From the sequence record NZ_CP012741.1: a DNA stretch of 64,000 nt. The stretch is one strand, 5' to 3'. The notes below the pieces were generated by a model. The model was not told where the DNA came from and made no database searches. It saw only the letters and a program-made list of their open reading frames with translations. The DNA is from a plasmid. Made by a program: the position numbers and the translations under genes. Numbering within the stretch: the stretch's first letter is position 1; every line of letters begins with the position of its first letter. Positions 34,391 to 53,894 of this stretch are shown one piece after another.

Positions 34391-35345
34391 TCAGTTGATC
34401 AGTGCTGACAGCTCTTGCTCTGACAAGCCTGTAGTTTCCGAGATCAACGCTTTATCGAGACCTGCGGCCAACATCTTTTTCGCGATAGCGACTTTGGCTT
34501 CTTGTTCACCTTCTTGACGGCCCTTTTGTAAACCTTCTTGACGGCCCTTTTGTAAACCTTGCTGTAAACCTTGTTCGCGACCGCGCGCTTCTAATTGCTC
34601 TGCTACTGTCATGAATTTTTCCTCATGCTCTGGGACTTGCTTCGCCAAGGTTCGCATCAAATCTTCTAAATTCGACGTCTCCCCTACTCTCAGCAAATAC
34701 TCCACTAAACTGTCTAACTGACTTGCTGTGATTAAACGTTCTAACAACAGTGTAACCACTGTCTCTGTAAAATCCAATAAGTCTCTTTGTCGTACATGCT
34801 TTTGGACCAGCTCTAACAGTGCCACTCTCTTATGCTGAATGATTTCATCATCCGGTATCACCGTTACATCCACCAAGGGAAAGTCCTGGCTATACAGAGC
34901 TTTCGCTATCTCAGGGTGGTCAAATTCATCCAGCCAATTGGTGCTGTATGGGTAAGGACTCGTTTGGCCATGATAGAACAGTAACGGCACCACTAAAGGG
35001 AGCGTCTCATTTCCCGCATCCAGGTGTTGTTTCATCGCTGCGATGGCATAACGCATCATCCGAAAGCCCATGTGTTTGTCTGGGCGACTTTGATGCTCGA
35101 TGAGCGCATACACATACCCTACCCCACTTTCTGTTTCCATCGAGCACATCCGAATAATACGGCACTAACTCTTCTTCCAAAAATGAACTTGATTGGAGCT
35201 GGAGCGTATTGAGATTGCAGATTTTTTTGATGTGCCCTGGTAAGTGTACATCGAGAAAGTCTCTCGCTGTATCTGGTACGGTCAGGAACGACTTAAACAA
35301 TCCATCATGTATTGATGTTGGTGCCTTCACTGTACTTATCCCCAT
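34391..35345 (-). pseudogene. Rpn/YhgA-like (PDDEXK_7, transposase_31) recombination-promoting nuclease gene with a frameshift
   Basis: Two overlapping ORFs in different frames (35345-35007 and 35149-34391). Together they match RpnA-like proteins: TSIHDGLFKSFLTVPDTARDFLDVHLP...YSDVL // GVGYVYALIEHQSRPDKHMGFRMMRYAIAAM...C-terminal QGLQKGRQEG repeats and HTH. The frame switches near 35130. Confidence 0.7.
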
Positions 35346-35555: not shown

Positions 35556-36326
35556 ATGAAAACAAAGATTATAGCCACTGCAAATCAAAAGGGAGGGGTT
35601 GGTAAAACCACGACCGTTATTAATCTAGGGGCTGAGCTAGCAAGACGGAAAAAGGTGCTTATTATTGACCTTGACCCGCAAGGAAACTGTTCAAAAACCT
35701 TAACTGCACAGCGTACTTTTCCATTTGAAGAAACTATAGCGGCTATGTTCGATAGACCAAAAGTTGTTTCGATAGCTGATTTGATTCGACCTGCTTTAGT
35801 ACATAACTCTCAAATCGAGAACCTAGATCTGGTTCCTGCGGACTTCCAGTTGTCCCGTATCATTGAAACATCGCTGACCAAGATTAATCGTGAGCGTATC
35901 CTCGAAAAGCAATTAGCAAAGCTGGAGGGGATTTATGACTTTGTTATTTTAGATACACCTCCGAATCTATCGCTTACAACGCTAAATGCTATTCAAGCAT
36001 CCGATCTGATTTTGATTCCTGTCGATTCTGGTGCGTTTTCTCTGGATGGGATCTCTCCTCTTCTTGACGCTGTTTCTGAAATAAAAGACGAAGATGCACA
36101 CTACCTTATATTGAGAAACGAGGTAGATTCTAGAAATTCGATCATTAATGAGTTTATTGATGAAGAGTTAGAAGTTGCACAAGATAGAGTACTACCTGTT
36201 TCTATTCGTAAATCAGAACATGTAGGCCAAGCTAATGCTGTTTCTGCTCCAGTGCGTTTCTATAAGTCAGGATCGCTAGTCAATAATGACTATCGCCAGT
36301 TAGCTCTATTTATTAATGATATGTAA
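35556..36326 (+). CDS. parA: ParA/Soj-family partition ATPase
   Basis: Deviant Walker A KGGVGKTT. 256 aa, followed by a small DNA-binding partner gene. Confidence 0.85.
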   Translation: MKTKIIATANQKGGVGKTTTVINLGAELARRKKVLIIDLDPQGNCSKTLTAQRTFPFEETIAAMFDRPKVVSIADLIRPALVHNSQIENLDLVPADFQLSRIIETSLTKINRERILEKQLAKLEGIYDFVILDTPPNLSLTTLNAIQASDLILIPVDSGAFSLDGISPLLDAVSEIKDEDAHYLILRNEVDSRNSIINEFIDEELEVAQDRVLPVSIRKSEHVGQANAVSAPVRFYKSGSLVNNDYRQLALFINDM

Positions 36327-36342
36327 TACATAGGTAATACAC

Positions 36343-36642
36343 ATGAGTAGGCTAAAAAATCATGGAGCTAGTACATCTATATCCGAATTTAACAATAAGG
36401 ATAGAGGTAAACAGAGTGGAATCACCACAGTTAAGAAAAAGGTTACCACTTCATACAAAATCCCCCCTTTGACACTAAGAATGTCTCTCTCAGATAAGAA
36501 AGCCATTGGCGATTGGGTGGATGAATTGCAAGAGCTATCAGAGCGAAATGTCTCTGCCGCCAAGCTGTTTCGAGCGTTAGTCTCATATCGAGATAAGATA
36601 GATAATGAAGAGTTGATCGAACTTATTAATAAAATGAATTGA
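36343..36642 (+). CDS. small centromere-binding partition protein (ParB/ParG-like partner of ParA)
   Basis: 99 aa immediately downstream of parA, flanked by the same palindromic repeats. Confidence 0.5.
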   Translation: MSRLKNHGASTSISEFNNKDRGKQSGITTVKKKVTTSYKIPPLTLRMSLSDKKAIGDWVDELQELSERNVSAAKLFRALVSYRDKIDNEELIELINKMN

Positions 36643-48381: not shown

Positions 48382-49131
48382 TTATAGTAGGTTTCGTTGC
48401 GCTTCTTTCCTCCTGTAACTTTCCCCTTGGCATTGCAAGATTTTCGCGTGATGGATCAGTCTATCTATGGCTGCCACCGTCATCACTGTATTGTCGAACA
48501 GTTCATCCCACTCCTCGAACGATTGATTTGATGTAATGATTAAGCTATATCGTTCATAGCGATGGGCTATTAGCTCGAACAGCACGCTTGTCTCCTCACT
48601 CGTTTTTTGGACATAACCTATATCATCTAAGATAAGCACACTGTACTTATCCAGCTTCATTAAGGCTTCTGATAGTTTCAGCTCTTCCTTCGCTTGTTGA
48701 AGTTGCTGTACCAGTAAGTTTGCACTCATGAACTTAACCCGCTGACCATGCTCGATCAGCTTGTATCCAAGCCCAGCAGCTAAATGCGTCTTGCCTAACC
48801 CACTGGCTCCGAACAGTAAGAGGTTGTCGCCCGTTTTCACCCATTCTCTATGGTTGGCTAAGTGCCACACTTGTCCTTTGTCTATCCCTCCCACCGCGGT
48901 AAAGTCATAGTTATCAAGGTACTTGCCCGCTGGAAGGTTGGATTCCTTTAAGTGGCGCTGCAAGCGCTTTTCTTCTCGGCTATCTAGCTCTAGTCGGCAT
49001 AACTCAGCAAGGTAACGTTCTACCGACCAACTTTGCTCGCGAGCCTTATCTGCCATTGGCTCCCATTGGGAGACAAGACTACTGAGGCGTAACGATTTGA
49101 GAAGAAGAGGGAGGATATGCTGCTCTGACAT
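48382..49131 (-). CDS. istB: IstB helper ATPase of IS21
   Basis: 249 aa, Walker A LLLFGASGLGKTHLA, DnaA-like AAA+. Confidence 0.9.
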   Translation of the reverse strand: MSEQHILPLLLKSLRLSSLVSQWEPMADKAREQSWSVERYLAELCRLELDSREEKRLQRHLKESNLPAGKYLDNYDFTAVGGIDKGQVWHLANHREWVKTGDNLLLFGASGLGKTHLAAGLGYKLIEHGQRVKFMSANLLVQQLQQAKEELKLSEALMKLDKYSVLILDDIGYVQKTSEETSVLFELIAHRYERYSLIITSNQSFEEWDELFDNTVMTVAAIDRLIHHAKILQCQGESYRRKEAQRNLL

Positions 49132-50663
49132 TAGTTTACCCCCTCTAAGATTTGTTGATAGCTCGACAGTCTGTGCTGCTCTACCTTAGGGCTCTCCGCC
49201 CAGCTTTCATCTTTTAAGAACCTATCTTCGCAGTCGAACAGTGTTGGTAGGCGGCCTATACGTATCCCATCAAGCACGAACCTGCCAACAGTATCTTCTC
49301 TCTCCGATTTGTTGGCGATATTCAATAATCTCACCATGTAGAGGCTTGCCTCATCCATCGTAAGATGCGTATCAACGTACTGCCAGATTTGGCGGTAGTC
49401 ATCGCTAGGAAGCATCTGATCTCGCCACTGACATCCCCTGAACGCTCGTGGCTTCTTCATTAAGGAGCCAATAATATGTCTGTAATCAATTTGATGCCCA
49501 CGACGACAGGACTGGGTATGTACCCTCTCTAGACTTAAGGTGTGTTCATCATGGCAGTAGATTTCTAGTGTTTTGTCATAGAGATGAACACGGACGGTTC
49601 CGCCGATAAGGCGGGACGGCACTGAGTAAGTGACTCTCTTAAGTTGGATCGTACTTGTCGTCGAGACTTTCAGTACATGAACTGTGTAATTGACGCTGGC
49701 GAACTTTGGTAGTGGTTGTAATTGTCGCTGCTCGTCAATTAGAAGCGGCTTAGAGCGGCGATTACGTCGCTCAACGAGTTGTTCTACGAACAACTCGTAC
49801 TCTTCTTTTGTGTTGAAGTCATAAGAGCCTCGTATTGCTAAGGCTTGGCGGACCTGATTTTTTAGGTGGTTATTCGCACTTTCTATCGCCCCATTCTCAT
49901 GTGCGACACCGGTATTATTTTTCGTTGGCTTGAAGCCATAATGCATGGCAAGTTGTTGGAAGTTATCAGTAAACTGACGTTCACTGGTGTTATTTTTATA
50001 CGCAGCACTTAAGCTGTCCGTTCTAACCTCAAGCGGAACACCACCTGAACGTTCAAAAGCCCCTTGTAGCCCCGTCGCAACCGCTGTAAAGCTTTCTCCA
50101 CCATAAACAACCTCGGCATGGCTCCAGCCACTGGCAGGTAAGCGATAATTGAACAGGCGATGCTCAAGCGTTTCACCTTGTATCGTGACGGTGAAATCAG
50201 CCCAGGTAAAATCCATGATCCCTTGCCGTCCAAACTCCTTTTCCTGTCGAAAGATCACCTCCTTATCTTCACCATGCAGAAGGCGCCATTTACGGACACG
50301 ACGCTCTAACGTACGTCGATGTTTCGGTAAGAATACGTCGCTATGCTCTTCACATAAGTGATCGAAAATACCGACAGGGGTAATTGTCGCGCTTCGCTCA
50401 AGGAGCGGAACGACGACAGGCTCCCAAACTGCTTCAAGAGGGTCTTTTCGTGTTCGGTATTCTCTAGGTTTGAGTGGACCTAATTGTCGTTGGCCTGATT
50501 CAATGCGACGAGCAGAGCGCTCAGAGAAGCCAGCCTTAGCGGCAGAAGTGGTTTGTGTTTTGTCTTTACGATTAGCCATGTATAGCCTTATTTGTTGATC
50601 TGTAATTCGTTTTCCTGGCACAAAGCTTTCCAATAGAGAGTTTGTCCCAATGTAGCAGATCAA
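49131..50663 (-). CDS. istA: IstA transposase of IS21 (DDE)
   Basis: 510 aa with N-terminal HTH (TQTTSAAKAGFSERSARRI) and a DDE catalytic core. The track start is TTG, so the exact start is uncertain. Confidence 0.85.
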   Translation of the reverse strand: MICYIGTNSLLESFVPGKRITDQQIRLYMANRKDKTQTTSAAKAGFSERSARRIESGQRQLGPLKPREYRTRKDPLEAVWEPVVVPLLERSATITPVGIFDHLCEEHSDVFLPKHRRTLERRVRKWRLLHGEDKEVIFRQEKEFGRQGIMDFTWADFTVTIQGETLEHRLFNYRLPASGWSHAEVVYGGESFTAVATGLQGAFERSGGVPLEVRTDSLSAAYKNNTSERQFTDNFQQLAMHYGFKPTKNNTGVAHENGAIESANNHLKNQVRQALAIRGSYDFNTKEEYELFVEQLVERRNRRSKPLLIDEQRQLQPLPKFASVNYTVHVLKVSTTSTIQLKRVTYSVPSRLIGGTVRVHLYDKTLEIYCHDEHTLSLERVHTQSCRRGHQIDYRHIIGSLMKKPRAFRGCQWRDQMLPSDDYRQIWQYVDTHLTMDEASLYMVRLLNIANKSEREDTVGRFVLDGIRIGRLPTLFDCEDRFLKDESWAESPKVEQHRLSSYQQILEGVN

Positions 50664-50712
50664 CCGGCCAATCTAATTGTCGCTGAACCGGTCAGGCTAA
50701 TTGTCGCTCAAT

Positions 50713-51106: not shown

Positions 51107-51544
51107 TCAACAAAGTTCATTTCTTGCTGCTATAGCCAAGAAATGACTTCTGTCTCGATAGAGGTCGCTATTCTCTACTTTACGATCGATTACCGCTAGT
51201 AACGATTCTGGTAGAGAAATATTGACCCTTTGGCTTTTTCCGCTGTATCTGCTTACGTCAATTTCTATCTGTAACCAAACATCACAAAAACGGTAGGCTT
51301 CATCTTCTCGATAAGCCAGTGCTCCTTGGTCTTCGAGTCCTAACACATCAAAGCCATCGGCAAGCATTTCTTCTAAAATACTTTCTATCGCTTCTGCTGA
51401 ATGTGCCGCTATCTCTTTACTGCTATCTGATGCGCTATAGCAGGAATAACGGTCATTACAAAGAGCTGGAACGACGATCCCGTAAGAGGAATCTTTATCT
51501 TTTGGTGTTTCTACACCCAATGTAAACCACATCGTTACCTCCAA
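51107..51544 (-). CDS. hicB: HicB-family antitoxin (RNase-H-like fold plus C-terminal RHH)
   Basis: 145 aa. C-terminal RVNISLPESLLAVIDRKVENSDLYRDRSHFLAIAARNEL is a CopG/RHH DNA-binding module. Directly downstream of hicA. Confidence 0.75.
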   Translation of the reverse strand: MEVTMWFTLGVETPKDKDSSYGIVVPALCNDRYSCYSASDSSKEIAAHSAEAIESILEEMLADGFDVLGLEDQGALAYREDEAYRFCDVWLQIEIDVSRYSGKSQRVNISLPESLLAVIDRKVENSDLYRDRSHFLAIAARNELC

Positions 51545-51553
51545 GTGCGCGGG

Positions 51554-51736
51554 CTAGATGCCCGCGTCTTTTTTGATAGAACGTACTGTGCCTATTGGTA
51601 AGGAGCCTTTCGGGTGAGGCACCGGAAATTTTTTACCAGAGATTGGAGATTTCCAGATCTGGTGACTTCCTTTGCCATGCCTTACAAACTCACATCCTGC
51701 GGCGAGTAGTTCATCTATTAGGTCTTTAGATTTCAT
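51554..51736 (-). CDS. hicA: HicA-family mRNA interferase toxin
   Basis: 60 aa, ...HGKGSHQIWKSPISGKKFPVPHPKGSLPIGTVRSIKKDAGI matches the HicA signature. SD GGAGG upstream. Confidence 0.8.
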   Translation of the reverse strand: MKSKDLIDELLAAGCEFVRHGKGSHQIWKSPISGKKFPVPHPKGSLPIGTVRSIKKDAGI

Positions 51737-51757
51737 ATTGCCTCCGACCTAACAAGC

Positions 51758-51781
51758 ATTATACACACGCGTGTGTATAAT
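51758..51781. promoter_or_regulatory. 24-bp perfect palindrome in the hicAB promoter (candidate HicB operator)
   Basis: ATTATACACACGCGTGTGTATAAT about 22 bp upstream of the hicA start. Confidence 0.55.
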
Positions 51782-51920
51782 GTAAAGTTCGTCTGTTATA
51801 TCTATTCTAAGTTGATTTATTTGTCATTTAACATGCTGTTTTTATTCAATAAAAACAGCATGAGACAAACCATGAATCTATAGAATATTTTTCTTGAACT
51901 CTTAGTTATTCAGCGTATAG

Positions 51921-52032
51921 TAATTGAGTAATTGAGTAATTGAGTAATTGAGTAATTGAGTAATTGAGTAATTGAGTAATTGAGTAATTGAGTAATTGAG
52001 TAATTGAGTAATTGAGTAATTGAGTAATTGAG
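51921..52032. repeat. tandem array of 14 x 8 bp (TAATTGAG) ending 1 nt before the parA2 start codon; centromere-like iterons
   Basis: Perfect copies. A second array of the same unit lies at 52881-52982. Confidence 0.85.
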
Positions 52033-52033
52033 T

Positions 52034-52669
52034 ATGGCTAATATTATTGCAGTTTTGAATCCGAAAGGTGGTGCAGGAAAAACCACCATTGCTTTACATT
52101 TATCTAGAGCGTTGAAGGAACACGGCTCTGTTCTTATGGTTGATTCTGACCCTCAAGGATCAGCACGAGACTGGGCTGAACAAGGAGGTGGTGATTCTTT
52201 TCCTATTGTTGGAGTTGACCGAGCAGGGGCACTTAAAAGTACGATACAGCAAATAGCGCCTTCGTATGACTGGGTTGTTATTGATGGTGCAGCTAAGCTT
52301 GAAGAAATGGCCGCTCATGCTGTGAGTATTGCTGAGCTTATCATAATTCCAGTGCAGCCATCCCCATTAGATCTGTGGGCTTGTGAAACTTTAGTTAGTC
52401 AAATTAAGCAACGTCAAATTATTACTGACGGTATTCCGACCGCTGCATTCCAAATCTCCAGAGCTAAAAAGGGGACGACTTTGGCAAAGGATGTTCGAAA
52501 AGTTGTTGCTGAGTATGATCTTCCTTTGCTTGATGGAAATATCCATGATCGCACCGTTTTTGCTAAATCCTTATCAGAGGGCTCTACTGCTATCGATGTT
52601 GAACCTAATGGTGCAGCGGCGTTTGAAATTCGTCACTTAGTGAAGCAAATAGTTAAAGGGTTTGAGTGA
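52034..52669 (+). CDS. parA: ParA-family partition ATPase (second par locus)
   Basis: MANIIAVLNPKGGAGKTT deviant Walker A. The track ORF begins at an upstream TTG inside the repeat; the ATG at 52034 is preferred. Confidence 0.85.
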   Translation: MANIIAVLNPKGGAGKTTIALHLSRALKEHGSVLMVDSDPQGSARDWAEQGGGDSFPIVGVDRAGALKSTIQQIAPSYDWVVIDGAAKLEEMAAHAVSIAELIIIPVQPSPLDLWACETLVSQIKQRQIITDGIPTAAFQISRAKKGTTLAKDVRKVVAEYDLPLLDGNIHDRTVFAKSLSEGSTAIDVEPNGAAAFEIRHLVKQIVKGFE

Positions 52670-52889
52670 AATGTTGAAGATAAAAAAAACAGGGGAAGGG
52701 CACCAACATCCACAAATAGAGGAGATTAAGAAGGTGATAACTAAAGAAGCTACAAAACGTTTAAATGCAGAACTACCCAAGAGTTTTTATTTGCAAGTTA
52801 AAAATTTCGCCGCTGAAAACGATATGTCTATCACCGACTTAACTAAGAAAGCCTTGACAGAGTTTATGTCTCAATCAAAAATTGAGTAA
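52662..52889 (+). CDS. small RHH (ParG/CopG-like) centromere-binding partner
   Basis: 75 aa, overlaps the parA2 stop (ATGA). C-terminal SITDLTKKALTEFM is RHH-like. Its last two codons and stop lie inside the first units of the downstream TAATTGAG array. Confidence 0.6.
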   Translation: MSEMLKIKKTGEGHQHPQIEEIKKVITKEATKRLNAELPKSFYLQVKNFAAENDMSITDLTKKALTEFMSQSKIE

Positions 52890-52982
52890 TTGAGTAATTG
52901 AGTAATTGAGTAATTGAGTAATTGAGTAATTGAGTAATTGAGTAATTGAGTAATTGAGTAATTGAGTAATTGAGTAATTGAG
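52881..52982. repeat. tandem array of about 12.75 x 8 bp (TAATTGAG) starting within the 3' end of the RHH gene
   Basis: Perfect copies, same orientation as the upstream array. Confidence 0.85.
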
Positions 52983-52990
52983 TCCTCTCA

Positions 52991-53221
52991 GTGCAATCGC
53001 CAAATCCCACTGAGAGGGCATCCGACCCTATAGGAGAGACCAAGATGCAAGTGAATTGTAGCATTAACCACACCCTAAACCAAAGCGCTACTAACGAAGA
53101 ACTCGATATGTTGCTCAGTCTGATGAAGCGCAACTACTTTCGTCCCAACCAGCAAGAAGTGATTGCTGCCTTTGTTGGTCGACAAGCCATTAAAAACTTC
53201 CTGGAAGAGTTCGAGCATTAA
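52991..53221 (+). CDS. hypothetical small protein
   Basis: 76-aa ORF, possibly starting at the internal MQVNCS. No motif. Confidence 0.3.
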   Translation: MQSPNPTERASDPIGETKMQVNCSINHTLNQSATNEELDMLLSLMKRNYFRPNQQEVIAAFVGRQAIKNFLEEFEH

Positions 53222-53894
53222 CTTGTTATATAGAATGCCACTCCGTGGTGGTGATTAGATACAATATGTTAAATAGAGGAATTTGCCCTGACTTTTGCCG
53301 CTTAGGGAGCAGACCGAGCGACAACCTGGTGAAAGTAGGGGCTTTCCTCTCTAAGAACCCTCAAAACCATTCTGAAAGTTAATTACAGTTTTTGGCCAAA
53401 TGTTAATTGATTGTGATGCGTTTTCATTTCGTCGTGATCTTGTCTCTTAATCCCCAAAATGATCGGTTTTCCTTTCTATTTGATAGGGCTTCAAAATGAA
53501 ACTCGGATGTAAGTCGTTTTTGGACATAAACGTGTTTATAGTTTGCTCTATTTGGTCTGATAGGTATTAGAAAAAGTATGGATATTGCCTCTATGAAGTA
53601 CTTTTTGGGATACAAAAAGACCGCCACGATGGACGGCCATTTAACAACACCCAGATCAGTATAAGTCTGATTTTTTCGTTCAGTATCTTTATGAGAATAG
53701 CTAACGCGTGTGTACAACCTTGCAACTTTCATCGATGGGCAGCCAAATAAGGTATAGCTCATTTGAGCTAGTGCATAACGTTAAAATGTATAATAAAACA
53801 CAAAAACTATACACGATGCGTTAGATATGTATAATTTAAGGGGATATTTATACATTAACTTGTCGCCAAGTATAAAAAAGGAAGCAATTTAGCT

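Follow-up and report, generated by a model that had tools for sequence, protein, structure and literature searches.

A probable ParF/ParG-type partition cassette flanked by two perfect 8-bp repeat arrays on a conjugative plasmid of Vibrio vulnificus

Results

Organization of the cassette

We analysed 64,000 nucleotides of the plasmid record NZ_CP012741.1 (hereafter, the window) and describe a two-gene cassette that is enclosed by tandem repeats and resembles a plasmid partition system. The DNA comes from an F-type (MOBF/MPF_F) conjugative plasmid of Vibrio vulnificus that belongs to the pYJ016/pVv180806 family and has 99.7% identity to pVv180806 across 84% of a 22-kb query. The first gene, parA, encodes a ParA-type ATPase. 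The second, whose ATG lies 1 nt past the parA stop, encodes a protein of 72 amino acids (aa) with a predicted ribbon-helix-helix (RHH) region, and is referred to here as the parG-like gene. An array of the perfect 8-bp unit TAATTGAG stands on either side of the pair (Table 1).

Both arrays were delimited by Tandem Repeats Finder and by direct reading. Array 1 belongs to a period-8 tract at 51919-52034 (14.5 copies, 100% matches, score 232), and a single nucleotide, T52033, separates its last unit from the parA ATG at 52034. Array 2 (13.0 copies, 100% matches, score 208) starts within AAA ATT GAG TAA (K I E stop), the end of the 72-aa open reading frame (ORF); its 12 full TAATTGAG units occupy 52887-52982, and the TAA stop falls inside the first of them. 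The two arrays share one strand and one orientation, and can also be written in the phase (AATTGAGT)n. A two-unit probe allowing up to three mismatches returned 25 sites, all within the two arrays, against 0.9 expected from shuffles, and the rest of the 64-kb window held none. A repeat unit also supplies the nearest candidate Shine-Dalgarno element of parA with usable spacing, the GAG at 52022-52024, at a distance of 9 nt from the ATG. The original prediction had described fourteen perfect units ending 1 nt before the parA ATG, a translation start context built of repeat units, and a stop codon of the RHH gene that is part of a repeat, and all three descriptions are accurate. It had also described about 12.75 more units that begin inside the last codons of the RHH gene; the position is correct, and the count is 12.9-13 depending on phase, a trivial difference.

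A consensus scan picked out a promoter-like sequence immediately upstream. Its -10 hexamer reaches into the first bases of array 1, which would place the predicted transcript start inside the array. An equivalent sequence, TTGACT-16-TATAGT, abuts the array of Vibrio tasmaniensis p1, and it is less clear in two other relatives (L007 and L008). Minus-strand ORFs that run through the arrays (LNYSITQ repeats; 51910-52089 and 52864-53133) were rejected as artefacts, the complementary strand of the unit being free of stop codons.

A ParF-like ATPase and a remote ParG-like protein

The 211-aa ParA lacks an N-terminal DNA-binding domain. Its best match in the PDB is ParF (4dzz, E=6.9e-27), to which it aligns end to end (residues 4-211 against 3-206), and it keeps the PSPLD motif that holds Ser-108 and Asp-111 of ParF (PMC7308502). 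In the closest non-Vibrio relative of this ParA in PLSDB, the next gene is named ParG by NCBI.

The partner protein required a different approach. A single-sequence phmmer search of the 72-aa protein against the PDB did not find ParG, and since single-sequence searches were uninformative, a family profile was needed. Its word-index homologues amounted to 12 proteins only, from Vibrio genomes and aquatic metagenomes, and the profile built from them (A2) matched a CopG-family RHH protein at E=1e-3 and ParG (1p94), in full-length register, at E=0.11. An exhaustive search with a hidden Markov model gathered 143 relatives, mostly of 55-85 aa. The expanded profile ranked ParG top in the PDB (E=5e-11), with omega matching weakly (E=0.025), and the most frequent Pfam family was ParG (PF09274), matched by 35 of 149 relatives.

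In the AlphaFold2 model of the 72-aa protein, residues 1-28 are disordered and helices span residues 37-49 and 54-69, where the predicted local distance difference test (pLDDT) score is 71-87. The best Foldseek matches of this model are RHH proteins, namely StnY, the RHH domain of PutA, and ORF56; ParG comes at rank 8, with a poor full-length superposition (root-mean-square deviation 16 A). The predicted ribbon, KRLNAELP, corresponds to KRVNVNFD in ParG. Ribbon positions 2, 4, and 6 of ParG read bases (PMC3413123), and here they are R-N-E as against R-N-N, two of three being identical. An R-N-[N/D/E] ribbon is found in 95 of the 149 relatives, and relatives from Acinetobacter, Psychrobacter, and the metagenomic locus L004, with R-N-D or R-N-N, also adjoin ACTC boxes. 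In the tail, residues K3, K5, K6, G10, H11, H13, and P14 are invariant.

The repeat unit coincides with the published ParG site

On the opposite strand and after rotation, TAATTGAG reads ACTC+AATT. In TP228, one ParG dimer binds each 5'-ACTC-3' box, and the spacers between boxes are "invariably" 4-bp AT-rich (PMC3130281, PMC3413123). Twelve such boxes form parH and eight more the OF operator, all of them upstream of parF; their stepwise removal progressively weakens ParG binding and centromere function, and an all-direct synthetic array is functional in this system (PMC3130281, PMC3413123). A 20-mer used by the TP228 laboratory, AATTACTCAATTACTCAATT (PMC5389482), equals 2.5 units of the present array.

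Among the TP228-type loci of our plasmid comparison, one is intact, one is cut at the record start, and one is truncated by an insertion upstream of parF. The operator of a TP228-type locus reads ...GAGTaattGAGT...atttGAGT-ATG (in full, ...ACTCaaaaACTCacagGAGTaattGAGTagatACGCaattGAGGatttGAGT-ATG), and the unit GAGTAATT occurs verbatim in the TP228-type OF operator. The last GAGT box abuts the parF ATG there, and the present locus reads GAGT-T-ATG. Hence, the overlap between repeats and translation start is a trait of the family and not a peculiarity of this plasmid. No array follows parG in the TP228-type locus.

Boxes of the GAGT/ACTC type were also seen in the short parF-parG intergenic region of the TP228-type locus (L085 1210-1245), of an Acinetobacter plasmid contig (L019 3050-3105, minus strand), and of an Aeromonas plasmid (L086 ~1320-1357). 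They have 4-bp spacers and overlap the parF stop, as in TTTGAGTaattACACattcACTCatat, and the ParG papers cited here make no mention of them. They may represent an additional ParG site, or they may result from conserved C-terminal Phe-Glu-stop codons.

Arrays and degenerate boxes in related cassettes

The identical unit, always perfect, flanks Vibrio cassettes that are only ~74% identical in nucleotides. There are 8 units upstream and 7 downstream in V. tasmaniensis p1, where a TGA stop lies within the first downstream unit in a different frame, 11 and 8 in V. mediterranei, and 6 and 7 in V. qingdaonensis. In a metagenomic relative, 4 units lie upstream, and the downstream side has 2 perfect units together with 2 TAATTAAG units. 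An array also stands in front of ParA homologues of Candidatus Enterovibrio altilux and Enterovibrio nigricans. Most relatives again have a downstream array, and it overlaps the parG stop in loci L003, L007, L008, L010, L004-6, and L086.

The most distant member, 60% identical and carried by small Rep3-type plasmids of aquatic metagenomes, has no perfect array. Its parA is preceded by eight GAGT/ACTC boxes of either orientation, which are separated by variable AT spacers of 4 bp and end GAGT-ATG, and 3-4 boxes lie over its parG stop. In a plasmid contig of Acinetobacter sp. MB5, degenerate boxes precede parA and cover its stop, and ~135 bp past the parG-like gene there is a perfect (ACTCAATT)x10 array, inverted relative to Vibrio (L019 2633-2714). 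A Psychrobacter plasmid has (ACTCAAAT)x4 before parA. The phasing of the boxes at 8 bp was never matched in 5000 shuffles for L004, Acinetobacter L019, the TP228-type L085, and Psychrobacter L087; the Aeromonas IncU locus, with CCTC variants, failed this same test. Altogether, the comparison of these relatives resolves the unit into a conserved box, GAGT/ACTC, and a spacer, AATT. A second array of 6 units, with ACTC/GAGT boxes before it, was also noted in the Acinetobacter sp. MB5 contig (L018 4651-4700).

The arrays vary in length between otherwise identical plasmids

Across the source plasmid, pYJ016, and pVv180806, which are complete, we found 0 substitutions in 819 bp of upstream sequence and the 846-bp parA-parG region (1,665 bp). 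The full units in array 1/array 2 nevertheless number 14/12, 11/12, and 18/14, respectively. Ten further assemblies encode the identical 72-aa protein and show 0 substitutions in the portion of parA-parG that is present; in 3 of the 13 assemblies with the exact protein, parA is incomplete where the assembly has a gap or the contig ends. In the seven of these ten in which both arrays are intact, there are 4-13 units upstream and 8-15 downstream. The absence of substitutions together with differing unit counts indicates that units are gained and lost much faster than point mutations accumulate.

Both proteins and the promoter spacing stay the same at any copy number, since array 1 occupies the stretch from the -10 hexamer to the ATG and the first unit of array 2 contains the stop codon. 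A graded effect, exerted through the number of binding sites, is therefore the only copy-number effect possible, and would be expected from the TP228 deletion series.

Genomic neighbourhood

A hairpin stands directly 3' of array 2 (fold energy -20.8 kcal/mol, z=-4.8). Relatives also place a hairpin at the cassette end, the version in pC4602-1 being unrelated in sequence. An Rfam scan of 51500-53500 (E<=1) gave two chance-level matches only, leaving the leader and the hairpin without a known RNA element. The par cassette gives way to the conserved backbone at this hairpin, whose membership in the cassette is uncertain. Beyond it, the 58-aa ORF (MQVNCSINHTLNQ...), which had no match in a Pfam search, is found in many Vibrio plasmids, and in related plasmids it trails par cassettes of differing types. 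In pC4602-1, for instance, it lies downstream of an unrelated ParA/118-aa cassette, with the different-sequence hairpin in front. Homology to V. harveyi plasmids begins at the very first base past array 2, so that the par cassettes resemble modules that can be exchanged at one fixed place in the backbone. In the alternative cassette of pC4602-1, four palindromes centred on TAGCTAGCTA precede parA (L082 1270-1375) and one more lies at the parB end (L082 2430-2450), again on both flanks and overlapping the 3' end of the second gene.

Upstream of par and divergently transcribed, a hicA/hicB toxin-antitoxin pair has on its side a strong promoter-like TTTACA-17-TATAAT (51786-51758). Overlapping it is TATACACACGCGTGTGTATA (51760-51779), a perfect palindrome of 20 bp and the probable HicB operator. 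On the downstream side of the par cassette there is a Fic-domain gene. The window also contains a second, unrelated ParA 16 kb away, and the plasmid probably has two par systems. Short tandem repeats near this second ParA, at 33.7-34.6 kb, include a perfect 24-bp x2.2 repeat (34508-34560), and the region may be the replication region. The stretch matched in pVv180806 measures 18.3 kb for 21.0 kb of query covered (84% query coverage), that is, ~2.7 kb shorter; an insertion at the istA/istB region would fit this difference.

Table 1. Features of the par cassette and of its surroundings, in positions of the window unless a locus is named
Feature	Position	Strand	Remarks
Promoter-like TTGAAC-16 nt-TATAGT	51894-51921	+	consensus scan, 9/12 matches
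Array 1	51921-52032	+	14 perfect TAATTGAG units; proposed operator and centromere; minus strand reads (ACTC+AATT)n
parA	52034-52669	+	211-aa ParF-like deviant Walker A ATPase (KGGAGKT); Pfam AAA_31/CbiA/MipZ
parG-like gene	52671-52889	+	72 aa; Lys-rich disordered N-terminal tail MLKIKKTGEGHQHP (conserved) and C-terminal RHH
Array 2	52880-52983	+	13 periods of the TAATTGAG unit; proposed second centromere array
Hairpin	52984-53017	+	10-bp stem (CCTCTCAGTG/CACTGAGAGG), 14-nt loop, no U-tract; directly 3' of array 2
58-aa ORF	53045-53221		backbone gene downstream of the par cassette; own Shine-Dalgarno sequence
Hairpin and 58-aa ORF equivalents	52984-53221; L082 2440-2689; L081 518-761
hicA/hicB	51107-51786	-	toxin-antitoxin pair upstream of par, divergent transcription
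istA/istB	48385-50708	-	IS21 family; beside a 24-bp x2 repeat at 50662-50708 (86% matches)
Second ParA	35556-36326		256 aa, KGGVGKT; unrelated, 16 kb from the par cassette; followed by a 99-aa ORF (pair 35556-36642)

Discussion

A probable partition cassette of known kind

In this study, we characterized a tandem-repeat-bounded gene pair on a V. vulnificus plasmid from its sequence and that of its relatives. The original prediction of a type Ib partition cassette made of ParA and an RHH protein is supported: ParF is the best solved relative of the ATPase, which has no N-terminal DNA-binding domain, and the partner shows an RHH fold with affinity to ParG. It is likely that this type Ib system belongs to the TP228 ParF/ParG/parH family, and hence to a known kind. 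The proposal that the arrays are centromere and operator sites finds support by homology, in that the unit is the published ParG box plus a spacer and relatives have degenerate boxes in the same places. Likewise, the copy-number slippage that had been suggested is supported by the differing unit counts of otherwise identical plasmids.

Several observations weigh against this assignment. The 72-aa protein, taken alone, falls below every Pfam threshold for RHH or ParG families and gives only a sub-threshold match to CopG_antitoxin. Judged from the family profiles it is a remote ParG-like RHH protein, by a link that is transitive, through relatives. The AlphaFold2 model is that of a monomer, has modest confidence (pLDDT 66), and lacks a beta-strand. 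No arginine is present in residues 1-29, and the arginine finger-like motif of ParG (PMC7308502) is not kept; lysine may substitute for the missing tail arginine. The promoter call at array 1 is a weak consensus match. Finally, copy numbers from drafts are unreliable: two of the ten further assemblies, both V. vulnificus drafts, have runs of N in array 1 (L091 903-1000; L096 867-889), and the position of these runs exactly at the array indicates that such arrays break or confuse short-read assembly.

With these points in mind, we infer DNA binding, repression, centromere activity, and a role for the tail as parts of one mechanism. Each 8-bp unit would be occupied by one dimer of the 72-aa protein, whose ribbon residues R30, N32, and E34 would read the GAGT/ACTC box, the AATT spacer serving cooperativity between dimers. 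Both arrays would be coated, by ~14 dimers upstream and ~13 downstream, and the coated arrays would be the centromeres. The lysine-rich N-terminal tails would recruit and stimulate the ParF-like ATPase, which in turn would position plasmid copies over the nucleoid. The coat on array 1 would also repress parA-parG transcription (autoregulation), because this array starts at the -10 hexamer and fills the leader up to the ATG. Slippage or unequal exchange, by which tandem 8-mers lengthen and shorten, would explain why the arrays are both perfect and of variable length; this process would homogenise the units while selection for protein binding keeps their sequence.

Other readings of the arrays

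The main alternative, unlikely but arguable, is that array 1 alone serves the par operon, and that array 2 is mainly an operator for the downstream 58-aa ORF, after the manner of omega in pSM19035. A promoter-like TTGACA-17-AAAAAT (52854-52882) abuts array 2 with the same geometry as at array 1, and the 58-aa ORF has a Shine-Dalgarno sequence of its own and trails par cassettes of different types in related plasmids. Moreover, pSM19035 carries three repeat sites at separate promoters (PMC5016525). However, the TTGACA at array 2 coincides with conserved Leu-Thr codons of the RHH helix and the promoter match is weak; V. tasmaniensis has TTAACA in its place, with no good -10 after it. In addition, a stable hairpin intervenes between array 2 and the ORF, and downstream boxes are found in the metagenomic L004-6 and in the Aeromonas plasmid, which lack the 58-aa ORF. 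An operator function of array 2 would also be compatible with a centromere role for the same array.

A more speculative extension of the type Ib reading, which we consider doubtful, is that the arrays are hypermutable 'contingency' centromeres. Frequent changes in unit number (4-18 in plasmids whose genes are identical) would adjust how many RHH dimers sit in the partition complex and on the operator. This would shift par expression, segregation efficiency, and the strength of incompatibility with co-resident plasmids of the same ACTC-box specificity. The direct arrays, placed exactly at the homology breakpoints with the backbone, might also allow whole par cassettes to be excised or swapped; pC4602-1 has a different par cassette at the same backbone site.

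It is very improbable that the arrays are generic slippage-prone octamer microsatellites without a protein partner, whose adjacency to par is incidental or matters only for leader length. This reading draws on an observation that also counts against ours, namely the occurrence of exact (TAATTGAG)x4 in 70 stretches (L011-L080) of species-representative genomes, mostly metagenome-assembled genomes (MAGs) of Bacteroidaceae, Chloroflexota, and Acidobacteriota. A ParA homologue was detected by phmmer in the 8-kb locus of only 6 of these 70 stretches, and adjoins the array in only 4 or 5; perfect arrays thus exist in unrelated genomes without a ParA nearby, and an array alone does not indicate a par site. 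Against the microsatellite reading, Vibrionaceae cassettes that diverge by 26% in nucleotides have the unit unchanged and in the same two places, and this unit is the experimentally defined ParG site. Slippage alone would not yield the degenerate ACTC/GAGT boxes that distant relatives keep at 8-bp phase.

As to the 70 stretches themselves, they come from widely differing phyla, and many of their arrays are ~39 bp long. One Bacteroidaceae MAG has more than 30 contigs with (TAATTGAG)x4, mixed with octamers of the GAGTGATT/GTGGTTAC type, and in Chloroflexota/Anaerolineae the arrays are often followed by inverted CAATTACC arrays. Exact (TAATTGAG)x4 occurs also in Acidobacteriota, a cyanobacterium, Undibacterium (16 units), and Morganella (17 units).

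Also very improbable is a phase-variation switch in which a change of units turns ParA or the RHH protein on or off through frame, promoter spacing, or stop codon: copy number is highly polymorphic among otherwise identical plasmids and the arrays touch start and stop codons, but the whole of array 1 is placed after the -10 hexamer and before the ATG, where unit changes alter neither promoter spacing nor ORF, the stop in the first full unit of array 2 yields the same 72-aa protein at any copy number, and all 13 assemblies with this exact protein have the same parA-parG wherever assembled, whatever the array length. We rejected on/off phase variation on this anatomy, which leaves frame, promoter spacing, and stop codon untouched. 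Replication iterons were rejected as well, as the 8-bp unit is far shorter than typical iterons and fits a partition-protein site, and no rep gene is adjacent in the window.

Significance

Our analysis leaves knowledge of how type Ib systems work unchanged. It does provide a concrete and testable mechanism for an unannotated 'hypothetical protein' and two unannotated arrays on Vibrio conjugative and virulence-associated plasmids (pYJ016, pVv180806, and relatives). For the study of ParG, the locus offers a probable natural idealised centromere of uniform ACTC-AATT units in 4 to 18 copies, in contrast to TP228, where boxes are degenerate and their number had to be varied by engineering. It is also a clean case of proposed centromere arrays that evolve by gain and loss of units much faster than by point mutation, and such fast evolution could matter for plasmid incompatibility and stability.

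Comparison with known partition systems

The original prediction had likened this cassette to pB171 par2. This likeness is confined to the layout, with repeats on both flanks, the family nearest in sequence and site being TP228 parFGH. The repeats of pB171 are 6-bp units in clusters, whereas contiguous perfect 8-mers are found here, whose sequence matches the site of ParG and not that of pB171 ParB. In the work of Ringgaard et al. of 2007, pB171 ParB is said to bind both sites and to repress through parC1. As in the present locus, the pB171 arrays flank a two-gene operon with a small ParA, in the order parC1-parA-parB-parC2 according to construct descriptions (PMC4270457).

TP228 parFGH shares with the present cassette a small ParF-like ATPase and an RHH partner of ~70 aa with a flexible N-terminal tail and a K-R-x-N-x-[N/E] ribbon, as well as ACTC/GAGT boxes with 4-bp AT-rich spacers that run with a period of 8 up to the start codon. 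It differs in having 20 degenerate boxes of mixed orientation, all upstream, where we find 14 + 13 identical direct units on two flanks, the second array overlapping the stop of the parG-like gene; TP228 has none after parG. TP228 ParG itself is too low in identity for direct detection, and the tail without arginine and the Glu at ribbon position 6 set the protein described here apart from it.

Contiguous short repeats that are coated by an RHH protein, one dimer to each, are also a feature of pSM19035 delta/omega and pCXC100 ParAB. In pSM19035, several sites have arrays of 7-10 units that act as both operators and centromeres, and the pCXC100 centromere consists of direct repeats only (PMC5016525). 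Omega sites have a period of 7 bp as against 8 bp here, the unit sequences differ, the hosts are Gram-positive, and the pSM19035 genes are not in a single operon. The ParG homologues of Yersinia pseudotuberculosis and Aliivibrio salmonicida, the latter one of the Vibrionaceae, have arrays of tetramer boxes with 4-bp AT-rich spacers upstream of parF homologues (Zampini and Hayes, 2012; PMC3413123). They have ribbons with 4 and 7 differences from that of ParG, and GA[C/T]A and CAT[T/G] as boxes (PMC3413123), whereas the present protein keeps R-N at ribbon positions 2 and 4 together with the ACTC box. What is notable in the V. vulnificus cassette is the presence of uniform arrays on both flanks and their hypervariability in length.

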